This document shows, in pieces, positions 7,025 through 27,027 of a stretch of 64,000 nt of DNA (within the stretch, counting starts at the first letter, position 1; the number at the start of each line of letters is the position of its first letter). A program made the translations under genes and the position numbers. Source of the stretch: a virus (taxonomy: Duplodnaviria; Heunggongvirae; Uroviricota; Caudoviricetes); IMG/VR virus record IMGVR_UViG_3300021400_000932; one strand, 5' to 3'. The notes under the pieces are model-generated. The model had not been told where the DNA came from. It made no database searches and saw only the letters and a program-made list of their open reading frames with translations.

Positions 7025-8530
7025 ATGGAAAGATATGGATGTGTTGCCCCTGGAAATAACATAGCAGCTAGAAAGAAAGCGAAAGCTACTATGCAAGAAC
7101 GATTTGGTGTTGACTATGCTATGCAATCGGAAACTGTCAGAAAGAAATCTGTTGCCACCAATATAAAAAAGTATGGTGTCGAAAACCCCCAACAAAATGA
7201 AACAATCAAACAAAAAACCGCAGAAACAAATCAGGAACGGTATGGGGGCACCGGTTTTCAATCAGAAGAGTTGCTAAATAAGTATAAAGATACAATGATT
7301 GATATATATGGTGTTACTTCCCCCATTCAAAACCAACAGATTCGACAGGATATTATGAATACTATGCAAGACAGACATGGCGCTTCATGGTTCTCTCAGA
7401 GTGAAGAATATAAAGATAAATGTCATACTACTTCATTATCTAAATATGGTGCGGAACACTGGATGCAAACAGATGAGTGTAAGCAGAAATGCAAAGATAC
7501 TTGGCTGCGGAATTATGGCGTTGATAATCCATCGAAATCTCCGCTAGTAATCGCCAAGATAAAGCAGACATTTATTGATAAGTATGGGACAGATGGACTA
7601 TTGAATGTAGCTGAAATCCGAGAGAAGATACAGAAGACTTGCATTGAAAGATATGGTGTTCCCTATGGGGTATTGACACCACAAGCACGAAAACACAATG
7701 GTGCTATATCGAAGCAAAACAAACAAGTAATGAAATTATTAGATGATGCCGGTTTGAGCTATCAGTCAGAATTCAATCTTGAAAATAAATCATTTGACAT
7801 CAAAATTTTATATTCCAATATACTTATTGAGATTGACCCATCATACACACATTCAATAGAACTAACTCACTGGAATACCTCTGTTTCAGATACATACCAT
7901 ATAGAAAAGACTATGTTGGCAAACAAACATGGATATCAATGTTACCATATCTTCGATTGGGACGATAGGAAAAAATTTGTCAAATCTCTAACTAAGAAAA
8001 AAGATATAGAAACAGACCAATATTATATATCTGAAGTAGATGAATTGACTGCAACTGAATTTTATTATAAATATTCCATCTATATGCCGGATACCAAGTA
8101 TGCAATCCATATTGGAATATTCAACAAGCGGAATAATGCACTACTGCAAGTATCGTCATTCAGATTCATAGATATTTCTAACTGTCGGTGGCTGCTTTGT
8201 GCTAACAGCATCAAATTCCAAATTAATGTTATAGATGGACTGCATAATATCATAGACCACTTTGTTAAATACTATGACCCTGCTGAAATTGTCGGATTAT
8301 GTGATATAGCAAAATCAAATGGGATGATGTTTGAATCAATAGGGTTCAAAGAACTTTCAGAAGAACCACCACGTTTGATTTGGAGTCGATATCGGTCAGC
8401 AATTTCTAATGACAATGTAAAAAGTCAAACCAAATTGAATGATGAACAAATATACTCTATGATGATAAACAATAAATATCTGCCTGTATATGACTGTGGA
8501 TACAAAGTATATTCATTGAAACTCCGGTAA
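7025..8530 (+). CDS. repeat-containing putative site-specific/homing endonuclease: tandem ~30-aa K..(K/R)YGV.NP.Q repeats plus C-terminal PD-(D/E)xK-like (DUF559/Vsr-type) domain; N-terminal Zn-finger module probably starts at 6841
   Basis: At least eight repeats (QERFGVDYAMQSE, KKYGVENPQQNE, QERYGGTGFQSEE, IDIYGVTSP, SKYGAEHWMQ, RNYGVDNPSKSP, DKYGTDGLLN, ERYGVPYGV). The C-terminal FDIKILYSNILIEIDPSYTH resembles a DUF559 nuclease core. The in-frame upstream sequence 6842-7024 encodes CKFCGKEF...CPVCGKEY and has no start codon. Confidence 0.75.
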   Translation: MERYGCVAPGNNIAARKKAKATMQERFGVDYAMQSETVRKKSVATNIKKYGVENPQQNETIKQKTAETNQERYGGTGFQSEELLNKYKDTMIDIYGVTSPIQNQQIRQDIMNTMQDRHGASWFSQSEEYKDKCHTTSLSKYGAEHWMQTDECKQKCKDTWLRNYGVDNPSKSPLVIAKIKQTFIDKYGTDGLLNVAEIREKIQKTCIERYGVPYGVLTPQARKHNGAISKQNKQVMKLLDDAGLSYQSEFNLENKSFDIKILYSNILIEIDPSYTHSIELTHWNTSVSDTYHIEKTMLANKHGYQCYHIFDWDDRKKFVKSLTKKKDIETDQYYISEVDELTATEFYYKYSIYMPDTKYAIHIGIFNKRNNALLQVSSFRFIDISNCRWLLCANSIKFQINVIDGLHNIIDHFVKYYDPAEIVGLCDIAKSNGMMFESIGFKELSEEPPRLIWSRYRSAISNDNVKSQTKLNDEQIYSMMINNKYLPVYDCGYKVYSLKLR

Positions 8531-16522: not shown

Positions 16523-16849
16523 TCATTTTTGTAATCTCGGTGTTATGCAAATATTATCGCCGGAGCCGCTGTTTTCACTAACAACAATATACTCAACACC
16601 GTACTCATTATCAGTAAGAACAGAAACCATGTAATATTTAGGATACTCCGGTTCAGACATCGTAAATGATGAATTTGTTGTAGCATCCACCTTACTTACT
16701 GAACAAGCACCAAGGAAGAATGCTAATAAAAACACGGCGACCAACAAGCAGGCGATTAAGACACGGATAAATTTAGGTTTCATTGTACTCCTCCGATAGC
16801 AATTCTGGATTATCATATATGTTCCCAAGAAATTCATAGATGCGACCAC
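16523..16849 (-). CDS. predicted lipoprotein (start likely internal Met MKPKF)
   Basis: Signal peptide with lipobox: MKPKFIRVLIACLLVAVFLLAFFLGAC. Confidence 0.5.
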   Translation of the reverse strand: MVASMNFLGTYMIIQNCYRRSTMKPKFIRVLIACLLVAVFLLAFFLGACSVSKVDATTNSSFTMSEPEYPKYYMVSVLTDNEYGVEYIVVSENSGSGDNICITPRLQK

Positions 16850-17216
16850 TTCCGATAGAACTAAAAGTCACAATATTATTCACATACTCAATTCGCCATT
16901 GGCAATTCTCTGCATTGTAACATATCTTCCCAATAGGCTGATAATAGGAAGTAACTGTTTCCCTTACAATGTCACCACCGAACAACTTTCTACCACTCTT
17001 GTCAACAAGACCGGTGAATGCGGATAGAGTATCTTTGTCGATAAACTCATAATCCCACAGTTCGCTTACACACATCTCACCACCGGACTTGACAATACAG
17101 TGATAAAATTCTTCACTGACAGCATCTTGGACATAGATGTAATGACCCTCAATCCACTCATTATTGTCAAGTCGCTTTGCGCGAAAAAGGATTCCACTCA
17201 TTTTGTATTCCACCAC
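16773..17216 (-). CDS. YopX-like protein
   Basis: N-terminal ILFRAKRLDNNEWIEGHYIY matches the YopX-family N-terminal signature. Confidence 0.5.
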   Translation of the reverse strand: MVEYKMSGILFRAKRLDNNEWIEGHYIYVQDAVSEEFYHCIVKSGGEMCVSELWDYEFIDKDTLSAFTGLVDKSGRKLFGGDIVRETVTSYYQPIGKICYNAENCQWRIEYVNNIVTFSSIGSGRIYEFLGNIYDNPELLSEEYNET

Positions 17217-17505: not shown

Positions 17506-17958
17506 TCAGAAAAGCATCTCTTCAAGCCTGCGTGCTTTTTCCTCAGCTTGTTTCAGCCAGGTTTCATATCTATCCAGCCAATAACCTCGTTCCATAGAGA
17601 GCATTTCCAGCAACTCTTCATCGCTTGCATCGGACAAAGGCAAATGTCCGCTACAACGTGCAGACTCAGTAATTGTATCTGAATCAAACCAAACCCAACC
17701 CTCACAAACACCGACCAGGGTAAAGCCGTACTTTCCGAACAAATTTGGATATTTGGTATCCCAACCCAAGGCTGGGCTGCTCTGATTAACTGCATCAAGC
17801 AGTTCTTGTCTTGTCATATATTTCATAGTATTACTCTTCCAACAGACTCCCAATCGAAGCTGCGGTATTCTGAGCAAGTTTGACATCAACTTCACTCGGA
17901 ACCTGAATCCTATCGTCTGCAAGCAGAACAACCGAACCATAAACATCGCCATTTGCAA
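17506..17958 (-). CDS. hypothetical protein
   Basis: 150-aa ORF; its N-terminus overlaps the next gene, so the true start is probably internal. Confidence 0.4.
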   Translation of the reverse strand: MQMAMFMVRLFCLQTIGFRFRVKLMSNLLRIPQLRLGVCWKSNTMKYMTRQELLDAVNQSSPALGWDTKYPNLFGKYGFTLVGVCEGWVWFDSDTITESARCSGHLPLSDASDEELLEMLSMERGYWLDRYETWLKQAEEKARRLEEMLF

Positions 17959-18367
17959 TAATCGGAATCACCAAAGATGCCGGTCGGCAATTAGCATCGA
18001 ATGTCGGACGAACGACATTATCATGACTGTATGTGTATTGTCTTCTGCTTTCGATGACAGTTTCGAGTTCATTTGAGATAGTCTGTTCAATGTATTGTCG
18101 CTTACTTACTCCGGAAACAGCTACTACTGAGTCTCTGTCAGTAATCAAAACAGAGTGCGAACTTAGCGATTCAAGTACATTTGCAAACTTGCCGACAAAA
18201 GATGATAGAGAACTGATTGGATGATACTTCTTGTAAATAATAGCACCATCCTCAACATAGATTTCCAGAGGGTCACCCTCTCTAATCCTTAAAGAACGGC
18301 GTATCTCCTTCGGAATTATAACTCTCCCGAGGTCATCAATTCTACGAACAATTCCGGTTGCTTTCAT
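17831..18367 (-). CDS. spoVT: SpoVT-like transcriptional regulator (AbrB-type N-terminal domain + GAF-like C-terminal domain)
   Basis: 178 aa. N-terminal MKATGIVRRIDDLGRVIIPKEIRRSLRIREGDPLEIYVE closely resembles Bacillus SpoVT (recalled from memory, not database-checked). Length and two-domain layout also match. Confidence 0.75.
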   Translation of the reverse strand: MKATGIVRRIDDLGRVIIPKEIRRSLRIREGDPLEIYVEDGAIIYKKYHPISSLSSFVGKFANVLESLSSHSVLITDRDSVVAVSGVSKRQYIEQTISNELETVIESRRQYTYSHDNVVRPTFDANCRPASLVIPIIANGDVYGSVVLLADDRIQVPSEVDVKLAQNTAASIGSLLEE

Positions 18368-20144: not shown

Positions 20145-20342
20145 TCAACTCTTCACACTCGATATTGCCTTTAATGCAGTATGATGATACAAATGACCAT
20201 CAGCACAAAGAATAAATGCGTCTTTATCTTCGATAGAGATATTACATATTTCTTCTTGTCTGTATATCGGACTTTTACCACCGTGTTCAATAATCAGAAC
20301 CTTGTCACCGGCATTCAACTTCTTAATGTCCGAAAACCTCAT
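20145..20342 (-). CDS. hypothetical protein
   Basis: 65-aa ORF. Confidence 0.35.
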   Translation of the reverse strand: MRFSDIKKLNAGDKVLIIEHGGKSPIYRQEEICNISIEDKDAFILCADGHLYHHTALKAISSVKS

Positions 20343-20376
20343 AATCCATCCCTCTGTTTCGATATAAAAGAATACA

Positions 20377-20754
20377 TTAATCTTGTATCCCTCTGGATTC
20401 TTCGTCTAACACCTTTAGAATAAACTTTAATGCATCCATTATAGTGCTAAGTTCGCTATCGCCGCCAAGAACTACTTCGAATCCGTCCTCTCCAACATCC
20501 GTACAGGAATCAATAAGTTGTACTTCAATATCTGTACTTGCGAGGTCATGAATACGAAAATACGTGCGTCCTCCATGTCCCGAATCTCCGCCCATATAAC
20601 CGGTGGTACCAGCCTCTACTTCGAGCATATTGGCACCAAATATTACACGACTATAAGTTGTAATTGCTTTTCCATCCGGCAATGTGCGTACATCTTTTTT
20701 AATTTCATACATTTTAATTCCCCTCCAGTTTATTTGTATTTTCCCAACCATCAA
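20377..20754 (-). CDS. hypothetical protein
   Basis: 125-aa ORF. Confidence 0.4.
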   Translation of the reverse strand: MMVGKIQINWRGIKMYEIKKDVRTLPDGKAITTYSRVIFGANMLEVEAGTTGYMGGDSGHGGRTYFRIHDLASTDIEVQLIDSCTDVGEDGFEVVLGGDSELSTIMDALKFILKVLDEESRGIQD

Positions 20755-21115
20755 AGATATTGCCTATAACTTCGAGGTACTGCGAATTCCATAAAGCATC
20801 TGAATCAGGACAAGGATGTTTGTCCTCTAAGGCATATAAATCCCAGCCTGCAAAATACTGTGAGCTGAGCCACACAACGGAGCAAGCTCTGCCATGCTGA
20901 GTACGAACAACATCACCTTCAAAAATAGGAGTTCCAAACTTATCATTTCGACCGGTATATTCACACACAGATTCCGGAATGATTTCATACGGAGAATCAA
21001 ATTCTTGTGTTTCTGTATCAATGTGGGTAATCTGCTGTTCTTTGGTAAACACACCGCAAGCAGGAAGTCCTTGTATCCACTGCTTATTGTCTTTCCTCTT
21101 TGCCCTGATTGACAC
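20714..21115 (-). CDS. YopX-like protein (second paralog), GTG start abutting the IS right end
   Basis: MSIRAKRKDNKQWIQG parallels the other YopX-like N-terminus; the start codon GTG at 21113-21115 lies ~5 nt from the IS terminal hairpin. Confidence 0.5.
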   Translation of the reverse strand: MSIRAKRKDNKQWIQGLPACGVFTKEQQITHIDTETQEFDSPYEIIPESVCEYTGRNDKFGTPIFEGDVVRTQHGRACSVVWLSSQYFAGWDLYALEDKHPCPDSDALWNSQYLEVIGNIFDGWENTNKLEGN

Positions 21116-21116
21116 T

Positions 21117-21300
21117 CCACACGACTAAAGTCGTGGGATTCTTGCTTCAACGACTACGGCGAGCGTTTTACTCAAAGAGTTCAGCTCGACTTACACAATC
21201 TCCACAAGCTAGATTAAAGAGTTCCCGTGTGCCCCACGGTGCTCTGTGTATTAATAGAGGTTAAGCTATCATAGCCAACCCTTTAGTTAATATATTCATA
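21117..21300 (-). ncRNA. putative TnpB omega/right-end guide RNA (3' end of tnpB plus right end)
   Basis: Structured ~145-nt right-end segment downstream of the tnpB stop, ending in the terminal hairpin; by analogy to characterised IS605 TnpB systems. Confidence 0.4.
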
Positions 21301-22355
21301 GCGGCATTGACATCTCTGTCGTGATACTCTCCGCACTCGGGGCAAGTCCACTTTCGTATAGCTAAATTCTTAACTAATGGATTTTTATATCCGCACTTGT
21401 TACACAACTGACTGCTCGGATAGGTAGTAGGCACTCTCTGTACTGTCCTGCCGTACCAGGCAGCTTTGTATTCAAGCATTGTAAAAAACTTAGACCACGA
21501 AGCGGAGGATATACTTTTAGCCAGCTTGTGATTTTTGAGCATATTTTTGATTTTCAAGTCTTCTACACAGATTACTTGGTTTTCGTTAATCAGTGTAGTT
21601 GAAAGCTTTTGCAAAAAATCATTTCGCTGATTAGATACCTTCTCGTGGACTTTAGCTACTCTTAGTCGTTGCTTATCTCTGTTATGGGAGTCAACCTTCT
21701 TTCTGGAAAGTTTTCTTTGTTCTCTGCGTAATTTTCTTTGTGTTCGTTCTAACCTTTTGTGATTAGGTACAGAATTACCGTTACTGTCGGAATAGAAATC
21801 TTTTATGCCGACATCTATACCAATAACGGAATCTATTCTGTCTAAAGGTTGAGGTTCAAAGTCAATGTTAAGAACAGCAAAATACTTTCCTGTAGGTGTT
21901 CTCTCTACAGTAACATTATTAATATGACCTATATTCATTGACTGTTTGACTTTAATATAGCCAAGCTTTGGTAACTTTAGTTTATTGCCGTCAATGCGAA
22001 TATTATTACCTTGATTAAGAGTTCTGTAACTCTGGCGATGGTTATGTTTACTTTTGAAACAAGGATATCTGCCTAACTTCTTAAAGAAGTTTTGATACGC
22101 TCGGTCTAAATCCCTGAGAGATTGTTGCAGAGCAATACTATCAACTTCCTTAAGAAAGGAAAAGTCATCTTGCATTTTCATAGAGGTGAGCATAGCAGAA
22201 GTAGCGGTATAGTTAGCTTTATTACCTAACTTGTATTGTTCAATTCTGTATGCTAAACCTTTGTTGTAAATGAATCGAACACAACCAAGAGTGCGGTTTA
22301 TTATGTTTTGCTGTTCCCGATTGGGATAGATACGAAACTTTACACCTTTGTTCAT
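21261..22355 (-). CDS. tnpB: TnpB (IS605 OrfB-family RNA-guided nuclease)
   Basis: 364 aa; RuvC-like motifs ([10 protein letters not shown]) and C-terminal zinc finger CNKCG...CPECG. Confidence 0.85.
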
Positions 22356-22364
22356 TACAAACTC

Positions 22365-22781
22365 CTATGGTCTTGTTTTCTGGGTATTTACATACCACTG
22401 TATTGTTTCAGAGCTTACATTACCGGCAGTAGAAACAAAGTAACTTCTAGTCCAAAGACTAGGCATAGCACTGAGTTCGTTAAATTCTTTGCGAAGTATC
22501 ACTGAGGATGCACCTTTAATGTATTGCATGATTTGTGGAATTGATTGTGTAGGTAAAGCACTTACAAAAATATGAACGTGGTCTACATGACATTCTAAAG
22601 CAAGAATTTCAATCTTTTGTTTTTTGCACACCGCTAAGGTTAATTCCTTGAACCGTTCTTCAACTCCTTTAATATTGAAGATTTTTCTACGGTAGCGAGG
22701 GCAAAATACAAAATGATAGTTAATCAATGATACTGTTGTTTTTGTGTGTTTATATATATTCTTCATATATATATTATACAA
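22365..22781 (-). CDS. tnpA: TnpA (IS200-like Y1 HuH transposase)
   Basis: INYHFVFCPRYRRKIF and HVDHVHIFVSALP (HuH) motifs; ~130 aa. Confidence 0.85.
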   Translation of the reverse strand: MYNIYMKNIYKHTKTTVSLINYHFVFCPRYRRKIFNIKGVEERFKELTLAVCKKQKIEILALECHVDHVHIFVSALPTQSIPQIMQYIKGASSVILRKEFNELSAMPSLWTRSYFVSTAGNVSSETIQWYVNTQKTRP

Positions 22782-22797
22782 CTATGAATAGATGTAG

Positions 22798-23217
22798 TCA
22801 AGAAATACATCTACTAATTTTAAGAATATTTGCGGCTATCATCCCACAGCTAAAGCAATAGGTTTTCTCACCGCAAGAAATTATAAGAAAATTCTCTACT
22901 TCTTGATGTTCGTCAAGATATTTTTGAATTTCATCACCCCTGTTTCCGGTAGAAACATATGGGGTTCGACCGAGTATCTTAACACCATCCCAAAGACCGC
23001 CATTGACAAGACAATCCTTGTAGTTATTATCGAATCGCCATGTACTTGTCACAACAATAGCATACCCACATTCCTCGCAGAATTTGGATACCCATTGGAC
23101 AGCTTGGAAGTTATTTACTTTATTATCTCCGGAATGATTAAACCGGCAGTGCTTACCGATATCATCCCACATAGGAGTATTCACAACTCCATCATAGTCT
23201 AAAAACAGGACATTCAT
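22798..23217 (-). CDS. HAD-superfamily phosphatase-like protein (C-terminus possibly remodelled by IS insertion)
   Basis: N-terminal MNVLFLDYDGVVN matches HAD motif I (DxDGV). The last codons SRCIS-stop are encoded by the 5' arm of the IS left-end hairpin. Confidence 0.55.
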   Translation of the reverse strand: MNVLFLDYDGVVNTPMWDDIGKHCRFNHSGDNKVNNFQAVQWVSKFCEECGYAIVVTSTWRFDNNYKDCLVNGGLWDGVKILGRTPYVSTGNRGDEIQKYLDEHQEVENFLIISCGEKTYCFSCGMIAANILKISRCIS

Positions 23218-25434: not shown

Positions 25435-27027
25435 TTATGTATTTGAAATGTCGGATACCTGTGTTGGGATATCTGTAGTAGGAACGTCATTCACATGAAC
25501 CGCTACATTATCACCGCCAAGTGCCTTAGCACCGAACAGACCGACAAGCAGGGACTTGAGGTCAAATCCCATAGATTCGCTCAGACCATCATTAACCTGA
25601 GTCAGTCCGTTGATAATCTGTCCGGTAAACTGACCTGCATCACCACCAAAAATCTTGATGGAATCAACAGAACTGAATCCACCTGCGATAGCCGAAGCAA
25701 TTTCCGGCAGCTTGTCAAAGTAGGCAACTGCCGCATCGAGAACCATCTGTTTCTGTGCAGCTTCGCCATACAGAGCCATAGCCTCAGCCTTTTCTTTCAA
25801 ACCTTCAGCCTCAGCAATCAGCTTAGCCTTTGCGGCCTCAGCCTCTGCATTACCTTTGGCGCGGATAGCATCAGCTTCTGCTAAACCAGCAGCACGAATA
25901 GCCTCTGCATCCTGTTCCTTTGCGAAACGTTCAGCCTCCGCAGATGCCTTTTTAGCCGATGCACTCTGCTGTGCCTCATACATCTGAGCATCTGCATCCT
26001 GCTGGCGCTTGTACTTCTCAGCTTCTGCATTACGCTGTTCTGTGTAAAGTTCAGCATCAGCTTCCTGCTGTGCAGCAAACTTATCAGCTTCTGCTTTCTT
26101 CTTGATTTCGGCTTCAAGTCTACGCTCAGTAATCTTTACCTCACGTTCTTCAAGTTCAATCTGCTTTTCCTGACGAGCAAGGTTCGCATCAGCTTCTGCA
26201 ATTTCCTTGGACTTGCGCTGATTCTCAGCCTCAATGCCCTTGGCCGCCTCTGCCTTTGCAATCTTGATGTCCTGCTGTTCCTTGAGTTCAGCCTGCTTGA
26301 TAGCAAGCGCATTCTCTTTAATAGCAATTTCAGTCTGGGCCGCAATCTCAGCATCATTAGCTTGCTTCTGTGCATCCGCCTGAGCAATAGCTACCTCTGC
26401 CCTTGCGCGTGCTGCAGCAATAGAGGCATCCTTTTTAATCTGTTCAGTATTCTCAATACCGAGATTGTCAATAACCCCATTCTGGTCAGAGAAGTTCTGA
26501 ATATTAAAAGTAGTGAGCTTAAGACCCATATCTCGAAGATTCGGACTGACATTCTCAGTAATCTTCTCAGCAAGTACTTTCTTATCTCCGCGAATTAAAT
26601 CAGTCAGCGGAATCTGAGAAATGATTTCACGAATGTTACCCTCTAAAATCGGGGTAATTTCAACCCGAATTTCTTCTGTAGTACGACCTAGGAATTTAGA
26701 AGCCGCAATCTTCAGAACCTCTGGGTCTTGGTCAATAGACATATTGGCTACAGCATCGACACGAATATTGATTGCATCCTGTGTCGGAATCTCACTCTTA
26801 GAAACAAAGTCAACCTGAATGTTTTCGAGTGACATAAAGTCCACTCTCTGAAAAAATGGGATTACAAATTTCGCCCTACCGATATAAGTCTTTGCACCTC
26901 TCGGACCAGTAACAACCATAGCTCGGTTGGGTGGGCATTTTCGATAGCACACCTTAAAGATAAGGACCAACAGAAAAAGAACTACAATGCCTGCGATAAC
27001 TGGGGTAAGAATTTGCCATGGAACCAT
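25435..27027 (-). CDS. flotillin-like SPFH/band-7 protein (FloT/YqiK-like)
   Basis: N-terminal transmembrane helix, SPFH core (NRAMVVTGPRGAKTYIGRAKFVIPFFQRVDFMSLENIQVDF), long Ala/Glu-rich coiled coil (AEAE repeats), C-terminal domain; 530 aa. Confidence 0.8.
   Translation of the reverse strand: MVPWQILTPVIAGIVVLFLLVLIFKVCYRKCPPNRAMVVTGPRGAKTYIGRAKFVIPFFQRVDFMSLENIQVDFVSKSEIPTQDAINIRVDAVANMSIDQDPEVLKIAASKFLGRTTEEIRVEITPILEGNIREIISQIPLTDLIRGDKKVLAEKITENVSPNLRDMGLKLTTFNIQNFSDQNGVIDNLGIENTEQIKKDASIAAARARAEVAIAQADAQKQANDAEIAAQTEIAIKENALAIKQAELKEQQDIKIAKAEAAKGIEAENQRKSKEIAEADANLARQEKQIELEEREVKITERRLEAEIKKKAEADKFAAQQEADAELYTEQRNAEAEKYKRQQDADAQMYEAQQSASAKKASAEAERFAKEQDAEAIRAAGLAEADAIRAKGNAEAEAAKAKLIAEAEGLKEKAEAMALYGEAAQKQMVLDAAVAYFDKLPEIASAIAGGFSSVDSIKIFGGDAGQFTGQIINGLTQVNDGLSESMGFDLKSLLVGLFGAKALGGDNVAVHVNDVPTTDIPTQVSDISNT

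Follow-up and report, generated by a model that had tools for sequence, protein, structure and literature searches.

A complete IS608-type insertion sequence in a rumen phage that very probably replaces 516 bp between two of its own target sites

In the insertion sequence (IS) IS608 (ISHp608) of Helicobacter pylori tnpA is followed by a co-oriented tnpB, terminal inverted repeats are lacking, subterminal palindromes are found at both ends, the right end finishes in TCAA with GAAT 5' of the right hairpin, and the tetranucleotide target is kept, unduplicated, at the left flank (PMC3201880). All of these traits are shared by the element analysed here, which lies on the minus strand of a 64,000-nt stretch (the window) of the virus record IMGVR_UViG_3300021400_000932, whose source scaffold measures 193 kb. 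Judged by its sequence, the segment 21109-22882 is a complete, intact-looking IS608-type element of the IS200/IS605 family, of a known kind and so far unnamed; very probably, it has replaced 516 bp of phage DNA, with junctions at two separate TTAT sites and by the mechanism set out below.

The IS608 transposase TnpA recognises its cleavage and target sites by base-pairing with a guide in the left end (PMC3201880). The target is TTAC and the guide AAAG in IS608, as opposed to TTAT and a predicted AAAA here; the left cleavage site is 19 nt from the hairpin in IS608 and 20 nt here, with the guide formed in IS608 by the 4 nt 5' of the hairpin foot (PMC3201880) and predicted at the same place here, and TCAA lies approximately 8 nt from the hairpin foot rather than 10 nt. 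The two TnpA proteins are only distantly related (E = 7e-26), and the left end of the window element has an extra outer stem and a promoter hairpin. The ISDra2 TnpB of Deinococcus radiodurans resembles that of the window in a nearly full-length alignment, in the catalytic triad and zinc finger, in a guide RNA (ωRNA) scaffold placed at the tnpB 3' end and right end, and in a guide taken from the flank; however, the window protein has 364 residues against 408, without the C-terminal tail, and its ωRNA is not recognisably similar in sequence, showing a weak RAGATH-18-like core. The motif next to the target (target-adjacent motif, TAM) of ISDra2 is TTGAT, in place of the TTAT predicted here.

For the TnpB proteins of IS605 elements the rule is that the guide corresponds to the stretch that immediately follows the right end on its 3' side, and the TAM to the transposase target (PMC10055086). 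In ISGst2 of Geobacillus stearothermophilus, also an IS605-type element with TnpA and TnpB and with nearly the same TAM (TTTAT), TAM-dependent excision by TnpA, cleavage of the donor joints by TnpB and recombination-based retention have been shown experimentally (PMC10055086), a mechanistic precedent that has been adopted as the working model for the window element. The host and the element differ, position −5 is unconstrained here so that the motif is 4 nt long, and the window element is known from sequence alone. As to phages, ISCaje1-4 were described in 2010 in the virulent Campylobacter phages CP220 and CPt10, one of them being an IS608-subgroup element with tnpA and tnpB (PMC2853527), and these IS200/IS605 elements of large virulent myoviruses appear to have been exchanged between host and phage (PMC2853527). 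With respect to ISCaje1-4, the element-free siblings available here permit a base-level reconstruction of the site, which reveals a 516-bp replacement between two targets. The understanding of the family is unchanged by this locus, the insertion history of which is well resolved and somewhat unusual. The features of the element and of the adjoining phage DNA are the following.

21109-22882, minus strand: complete IS200/IS605-family (IS608-type) insertion sequence, 1,774 bp, delimited by close copies that end at positions 1 and 1774
22883-22886, minus strand: TTAT target and predicted TAM directly 5' of the left end, in phage DNA (HAD codons 111-112)
22831-22876, minus strand: outer left-end stem TTGCGGT / GCCGCAA enclosing the imperfect palindrome, from the DNA fold
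22843-22862, minus strand: left-end imperfect palindrome CCTATTGC-TTTA-GCTGTGGG, likely the TnpA-binding hairpin
22789-22813, minus strand: second left-end hairpin TAGATGTA / TACATCTA, from the fold; its loop includes the −35 box of the predicted tnpA promoter as well as the TGA that ends HAD
22773-22801, minus strand: predicted sigma-70-like tnpA promoter TTGACT-17-TATAAT, matching 11 of 12 consensus positions
22365-22766, minus strand: tnpA, Y1 (HUH) transposase, 133 residues (Pfam Y1_Tnp, E = 6e-37)
21261-22355, minus strand: tnpB, RNA-guided nuclease, 364 residues, intact (Pfam HTH_OrfB_IS605, OrfB_IS605 and Cas12f1-like_TNB)
21109-21245, minus strand: ωRNA scaffold and right end, from covariation in 23 family sequences, with a provisional 5' limit
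21239-21235/21229-21225, 21208-21204/21145-21141 and 21200-21197/21155-21152, minus strand: ωRNA helices, with the right-end hairpin at 21138-21116
21093-21108, minus strand: predicted 16-nt ωRNA guide template TCAGGGCAAAGAGGAA, in phage DNA (YopX codons 6-11), from the TnpB rule (PMC10055086)
22798-23217, minus strand: truncated HAD_SAK_2 gene, a 139-residue open reading frame (ORF) of 112 native and 27 element-encoded residues (ISCGEK...SRCIS), from Pfam and the siblings
20714-21115, minus strand: 5'-truncated YopX gene, native from 21108, with GTG-TCA-A (21109-21115) being element DNA

From left to right, the element consists of a left end with a subterminal imperfect palindrome, the promoter, tnpA, tnpB, the ωRNA scaffold, the right-end hairpin and the terminal TCAA, and the window holds it once only. 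By looking up the exact TnpA protein, copies with 88-98% identity were found at nine loci besides the window contig. Seven of the nine align to positions 1-1774 and the other two are cut by a contig end (one at 1758), while the flanks of the close copies diverge directly outside positions 1 and 1774. The right end, ...GAGTGTCAA closing at 21109, is confirmed by six different right flanks that diverge straight after ...GTGTGGAGTGTCAA, by approximately 20 further genomic family members with the same point of divergence and with compensatory changes in the hairpin, and by family members of about 68% identity, which share these ends; moreover, IMG/VR contigs and two Enterocloster phages contain the same final 29 nt before 21109. 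At the left end TTAT is found on the 5' side in every copy examined (nine family copies at about 68% identity and all those at 88-98%), with a variable position −5, and the right flanks do not repeat the target, nothing being duplicated on insertion.

In place of terminal inverted repeats, the two ends carry subterminal imperfect palindromes that are alike in sequence and are conserved and covarying across the family. The Y1 transposase with its catalytic Tyr, the downstream tnpB on the same strand, the palindromes, the insertion 3' of a tetranucleotide and the occurrence in multiple contexts place the element in the IS608-type subgroup. The preliminary description had recognised an IS605-type tnpA-tnpB element within the phage, which Pfam domains, structure alignments and conserved ends bear out. 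It had, however, confined the element to 21117-22835, and the alignment of copies extends this by 8 nt on the right and 47 nt on the left; the TTAC-like target that it anticipated has given way to the TTAT that precedes all copies examined. Placing the left boundary after TTATAA, which would fuse HAD and YopX in frame, was also considered and was rejected on the basis of nine aligned left ends and of the element-free siblings. A metagenome scan with a 26-nt left-end pattern returned 0 matches, a result that is little informative as the pattern held a window-specific single-nucleotide polymorphism (SNP; GGTGA as opposed to GGCGA elsewhere).

When a neighbouring protein was looked up, contigs of this phage both carrying and lacking the element came back (contigs and loci are designated by L numbers). 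L007, L010, L011, L014 and L015 are 100% identical to the window, L007 deriving from a 193-kb scaffold. L008, L009, L012 and L013 lack the element and share 97-98% of their flanking bases with the window overall: they are 98.1% identical up to window position 22883, resume at 21108 with 91-98% identity depending on the contig and, between these points, contain 516 bp (L008 7188-7703) without counterpart in the window. The missing segment comprises the 3' 60% of a HAD-fusion gene (179 of 291 residues, with the DDD motif and the whole second module) and the first 16 nt of YopX. With a slash marking the breakpoint, the siblings read CTTAT/CTTTGATG... on the left (CTTAT/CTTTGATGATGA) and ...GATTTTAT/TCAGAG on the right, and both ends of the segment lie directly 3' of TTAT, in HAD codons 111-112 and in YopX codons 5-6. 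TTAT occurs approximately 8.5 times per kb, and a random endpoint would thus fall right after it in about 1% of cases; seven other TTAT sites are found between the two that were used. As read from the bases at the breakpoints, each junction, left and right, has the form of a canonical insertion, with a different target site in each case. The element-free arrangement is taken as ancestral because the same order, HAD (156 residues), a gene for a 131-residue protein and YopX, is found in more distant phages. The comparison with IS-free relatives that the preliminary description had proposed thus led to the reconstruction of the empty allele to the base, and provides, for an IS200/IS605 element in a phage population, a natural pair of alleles before and after the event at base resolution. 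It also indicates that such an element can delete phage genes as well as interrupt them, both breakpoints falling at the motif that it targets.

The earlier interpretation had been that of a simple single insertion that changed only a few residues at the HAD C-terminus and lay just before an intact YopX gene with a GTG start. It accounts for the HAD ORF that runs into the element and stops in a hairpin loop, and for the YopX-homologous ORF that opens at the GTG at 21115. Yet the siblings have 516 bp between the junctions, a 291-residue HAD fusion and an ATG-started YopX of 136 residues, and the GTG lies 7 nt inside a right end defined by more than 20 copies, so that a single insertion is hardly credible. 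The idea that the 516 bp are a secondary insertion in the siblings conflicts with the HAD profile, which runs through the left junction (site A), and with the same order in distant relatives. Of the earlier interpretation it holds that the native 3' end of HAD was replaced, that the TGA in the loop of the 22789-22813 hairpin closes the reading frame and that its last residues are element-encoded; the damage, with 516 bp gone, goes beyond a remodelled C-terminus, and that hairpin is probably not the left-end site bound by the transposase. Likewise, both the right-end hairpin (21120-21135) and the GTG beside it are present, but the GTG is element DNA, as it follows from the right end at 21109, and the YopX gene is truncated at its 5' end instead of intact.

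The effects on the two phage genes are consistent with these junctions. The window HAD protein matches residues 1-111 of the 139-position HAD_SAK_2 profile and lacks FDDDSD, whereas those of the siblings match 1-136 and contain it (...ENFLI-FDDDSDMG...); homologues cover about 81% of the window protein, the tail being excluded. The sibling YopX gene begins ATG CGA AAG ATT TTA T/TC AGA (MRKILFRAKRK, 136 residues) and overlaps the HAD 3' end. That of the window is without the native ATG, five codons and the ribosome-binding site, with the domain matched over profile positions 3-122 of 128; GGAG overlaps the GTG at 21115 so that no spaced Shine-Dalgarno sequence is available, and gene callers took an internal start, giving 112 residues. 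The retained YopX codons differ from the sibling at three residues only, which suggests a recent event. With regard to annotation, neither the HAD ORF nor the GTG-started YopX ORF of this locus is a native gene model; both are artefacts of the insertion. Among viral contigs, a scan for proteins related to the window YopX found none. A protein search with the 139-residue HAD ORF, aimed at a longer HAD protein with the element tail, which would mark an intermediate carrying the element at the YopX site alone, also found none; it missed the window's own protein and the 92%-identical 291-residue sibling as well, so that near-identical sequences evidently escape it and its negative result carries no weight. 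The 291-residue sibling protein is itself a fusion, sharing 78% identity with the HAD protein and 48% with the 131-residue protein of distant relatives (L008 6853-7728 compared with L108 3001-3869); the latter, of unassigned function, is encoded there by a gene separate from HAD. A second, intact YopX paralogue (142 residues) is found at 16773-17201 on the minus strand.

Both proteins of the element look intact. tnpA starts with ATG (an alternative upstream TTG is found at 22781) and its product scores 126.9 bits with Y1_Tnp against a cut-off of 23. TnpA can be aligned over its full length with structures solved for IS200/IS605-family transposases, among them ISHp608 TnpA, which gives the E-value quoted above; the HUH motif is HVH within HVDHVHI from residue 60, and the C-terminal Tyr is found in QWYVNTQ from residue 123. 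tnpB begins 10 nt past the tnpA stop on the same strand. Residues 2-360 of TnpB match ISDra2 TnpB (8BF8/8EXA/8H1J) with E = 1.4e-97; D181, E265 and D348 align with D191, E278 and D361 of ISDra2, and both CxxC pairs are kept (CNKC, CPEC). Translation gives an intact 364-residue ORF in all copies. A truncated tnpB of 310 residues, listed in the gene tables for bacterial copies, proved to be a gene-calling difference. Between copies tnpB differs at 29-117 codons, with 17-78 synonymous and 11-39 non-synonymous differences, an approximately 1.4- to 2.7-fold excess of the former. By taking into account the intact tnpB, in which the frameshifts that would have contradicted the earlier proposal are not present, the RuvC triad and zinc finger, and the conserved scaffold, the proposal of an active-looking TnpB with its guide RNA is upheld.

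The ωRNA structure covers approximately 140 nt from the tnpB stop to the right end. In the 23 family sequences the scaffold consists of 22 pairs, with 99.2% of the cells paired and compensatory changes at eight pairs; in slid controls 31-53% were paired, and the observed covariation score was reached by 0 of 500 shuffles. The core of the right-end hairpin is CACGAC-TTTA-GTCGTG at 21120-21135, with a predicted guide GAAT at 21138-21141 and the cleavage tetranucleotide TCAA at 21109-21112. This terminal hairpin doubles as a DNA site for TnpA, and thus its covariation is not RNA-specific evidence. From the junctions, and by analogy with described elements, we infer TTAT as the TAM and a guide of 16 nt together with its use. 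TCAGGGCAAAGAGGAA occurs once in the window, where TCAA and not TTAT precedes the guide-matching sequence; hence, the element-bearing genome itself would not be targeted.

With these assumptions, TnpA would move the top strand by single-strand 'peel and paste', picking TTAT via the AAAA guide beside the left hairpin. TnpB with an ωRNA, the 3' 16 nt of which would come from the YopX flank, would cut any TTAT+TCAG(G/A)GCAAAGAGGAA site, its targets being the donor site after resealing or, in a co-infecting sibling, the allele without the element, and recombination, aided by the phage UvsX-like recombinase, would copy the element back in. On this model the element would have entered both TTAT sites, and the two copies would then have recombined by homology, within one genome or between two phage genomes, with the loss of the 516 bp. 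Recombination between two copies is, on the structure of the junctions, considered the most likely origin of the loss. TnpA might instead have made the deletion itself by joining two TTAT sites on one strand, or by integrating a circle via two TTATs. Such a route would place both endpoints exactly 3' of TTAT, as is observed, and guide-only recognition (PMC3201880) makes any nearby single-stranded TTAT chemically eligible. Against it, no DNA is gained or lost when excision reseals the donor (PMC3201880), the same junctions arise by known reactions if two copies recombine, and the seven other TTAT sites in between were passed over, so that a deletion made by TnpA is regarded as improbable.

The replacement of 516 bp by one copy of the element has also to be weighed against an assembly artefact. 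The contigs compared all come from the assembly of short metagenome reads, and the element, 1.77 kb in length, is a repeat that abounds in these samples. An element-516 bp-element arrangement, or a mixture of phages, some having the element at site A alone and others at site B alone, might have been collapsed or mis-threaded without any deletion, in which case the junctions right end/CTTTGATGATG (right end/CTTTGATG) and GATTTTAT/AATTTCTTGCGG should exist on the SNP background of the window strain. Several observations weigh against the replacement as proposed, or against parts of it. The element exceeds short-read inserts in length and is abundant (239 index blocks list the identical TnpA protein), Logan contigs are interrupted within it (L010 stops at 21561 and L015 begins at 21137), and the linkage of the two junctions through one copy was assembled, not read directly. 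No intermediate with the element at one site only was found among the contigs and scans examined, and the data do not single out one origin of the deletion between recombination and joining by TnpA. As to the guide RNA, Rfam gives only a sub-threshold match to RAGATH-18 (RF03064) at 21139-21208 (23.3 bits against 44.9, E = 0.33), a resemblance limited to the core, so that the RNA is not assigned to that family, and the TTAT+TCAGAGCAAAGAGGAA carried by four of four element-free siblings has one synonymous mismatch at guide position 5. A bacterial pair, L101 and L104, with one left flank and two unrelated right flanks, possibly reflects a similar mis-join.

On the other hand, the scaffolds L007 and L011 span flank, element and flank at 100% identity, and the Logan pair L010 and L015, from a third dataset, covers both junctions separately. 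L010 (left flank and positions 1-1321) and L097 (positions 489-1774 and right flank) overlap by 833 nt at 100% identity, where other copies differ by 2-4%; L010 is unbroken from the flank into the variant-specific left end, which, from the expected behaviour of assembly graphs, also argues against another left junction of this variant in the sample concerned. Furthermore, direct repeats of 1.8 kb at 0.5 kb from each other would be unstable in a phage with a UvsX-like recombinase. Thus, an artefact of assembly is given a low probability, and the replacement between two TTAT sites is retained.

Both alleles, with and without the element, were found in the same sheep-rumen datasets, namely GCA_001684375.1 (L009 and L097) and BioSample SAMN02144230 (L007 and L012). 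The locus provides a concrete set of TAM, guide and target for a 'non-restorative homing' by TnpB between co-infecting phages, while homing of this sort has been raised in a review, theoretically only (PMC13565253). No inference is drawn from the position-5 mismatch as an escape mutation, given that a SNP in 16 nt is expected in approximately 38% of cases at about 3% flank divergence. The SNPs between the alleles cluster from −306 to +892 around the element (window 22883-23189 and 20217-21108), with 23 and 39 SNPs and 4-7% divergence. This divergent patch of 1.2 kb is bordered on both sides by about 1.5 kb without SNPs, and similar patches are found elsewhere in the 6 kb compared. That the patch is a co-conversion tract of a recombinational transfer is suggestive only. 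An RNA-guided gene drive, in which TnpB and ωRNA would cut the sibling YopX allele, repair would copy in the element and the linked 516-bp deletion, and the patch would be the scar, is put forward tentatively, as a rather unlikely extension of the replacement model.

The match of the guide with a sibling-phage allele might also be taken to mean that TnpB has been domesticated and is of use to the phage, either in attacking competitors or in regulation; phage-encoded relatives of TnpB repurposed as RNA-guided regulators (TldR) exist. The RuvC triad and the ends are, however, intact, tnpA is present and essentially invariant, the same element is found in many unrelated contexts, two phage genes are inactivated by the insertion, and presence or absence is polymorphic at the site. 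Domestication is, therefore, deemed very unlikely, and a selfish, mobile element, of which these traits are typical, remains the preferred description.

In the left end, the imperfect palindrome at 22843-22862 is 20 nt from the cleavage site, with AAAA, the predicted guide tetranucleotide, directly 5' of it at 22863-22866. Its resemblance to the right-end hairpin and the IS608 layout make it the likely binding site of TnpA. The preliminary description had taken the hairpin at 22789-22813 as that of the left end. The 22789-22813 hairpin is part of the element: it is conserved in the family with compensatory changes (GTAGATGTA/TACATCTAC, GTAGATAAT/ATTATCTAC) and is absent from the element-free siblings, so that it cannot be a native terminator of IS-free relatives, the outcome that would have spoken against the earlier description. 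The predicted tnpA promoter TTGACT-17-TATAAT is the top minus-strand site in the scanned region, and its hexamer positions are kept in family members. The outer stem is also kept by family members with altered sequences, e.g. TGTGGGC/GCCCAC and GTGGC/GCCAC, as read by eye from the alignment; we know of no described role for it.

Two phage contigs, one of them of the Gp23 type, and loci adjoining dockerin/CBM26 genes contain copies with 96-98% identity, and in at least six distinct contexts copies with 88-98% identity end at positions 1 and 1774. Among bacteria, the closest copies belong to metagenome-assembled genomes of uncultured Ruminococcus, in agreement with the dockerin/CBM26 neighbours. 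One element is thus common to Ruminococcus-like chromosomes and to at least three different phages at 96-98% identity, and close copies after TTAT in both kinds of replicon lead to the conclusion that the family is mobile now or was so recently. In silico removal of the L100 copy restores a 124-codon ORF with nothing duplicated, which identifies that copy as a simple insertion; hence, the replacement seen in the window is not the usual outcome for the element. In each of the four phage insertions (L098, L100, L002 and the window) the element points the same way as the phage genes around it. IS608-type transposition prefers the lagging-strand template, and the co-orientation agrees with this preference. 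TnpB homologues are found in 410 of 50,697 phage records.

As for variation among the copies, tnpA and the left end are nearly invariant among L098, L100, L102, L104 and L105, with 0-1 codon differences even in the 88%-identical copy; such a tnpA beside a variable tnpB suggests mosaic elements or recombination between copies. The bacterial left flanks of L101 compared with L104 and L106 are 99.6% identical and their right flanks unrelated, which may be due to recombination between copies that reside at different loci or to a mis-join made at the repeat during assembly.

The closest relative in the phage records is found in the Enterocloster phage CB473P3 (OP172757.1, 97107-98844; L002), with 68% identity over the whole element, the same last 37 nt at the right end, TTAT before it and a location that is also within a YopX gene. 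It differs in the host genus and insertion site, and in tnpA, which gives two overlapping tblastn pieces, suggesting a frameshift. The 3' two-thirds of its YopX gene appear to be missing, the genes there being annotated only as hypothetical proteins. In L001 (Enterocloster phage CB457P1, approximately 2812-2940) and L005 (an IMG/VR contig) a solo right end with ωRNA scaffold of about 125 nt is found with no tnpA or tnpB beside it; it is nearly identical to that of CB473P3 and may be a remnant or a miniature derivative. A 501-residue ORF beside the CB457P1 remnant was considered as a homologue of a 501-residue ORF of the window and was found to be unrelated.

The latter, at window 7025-8530 on the plus strand, runs against almost all long ORFs of its region, which occupy the minus strand; its matches are homing-endonuclease/HNH families of PHROG and DUF7487 of Pfam, and it may be another mobile gene. 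In the examined part of the window the minus strand carries every gene. The window proteins include tail sheath, portal and major head proteins, DNA polymerase, clamp loader, a UvsX-like recombinase and a ligase-like protein, which, together with the 193-kb source scaffold, fit a host replicon that is a roughly 190-kb myovirus-like rumen phage. The gene content in the 64 kb fits a large lytic myovirus, in line with the 'virulent-looking' of the preliminary description, and is also compatible with lysogeny. Among the remaining genes, that at 25435-27027 (minus strand) encodes a 530-residue SPFH/Band 7 protein with a flotillin-like region, and that at 17831-18367 (minus strand), a few kb downstream of the element, encodes a 178-residue MazE/SpoVT-like protein.

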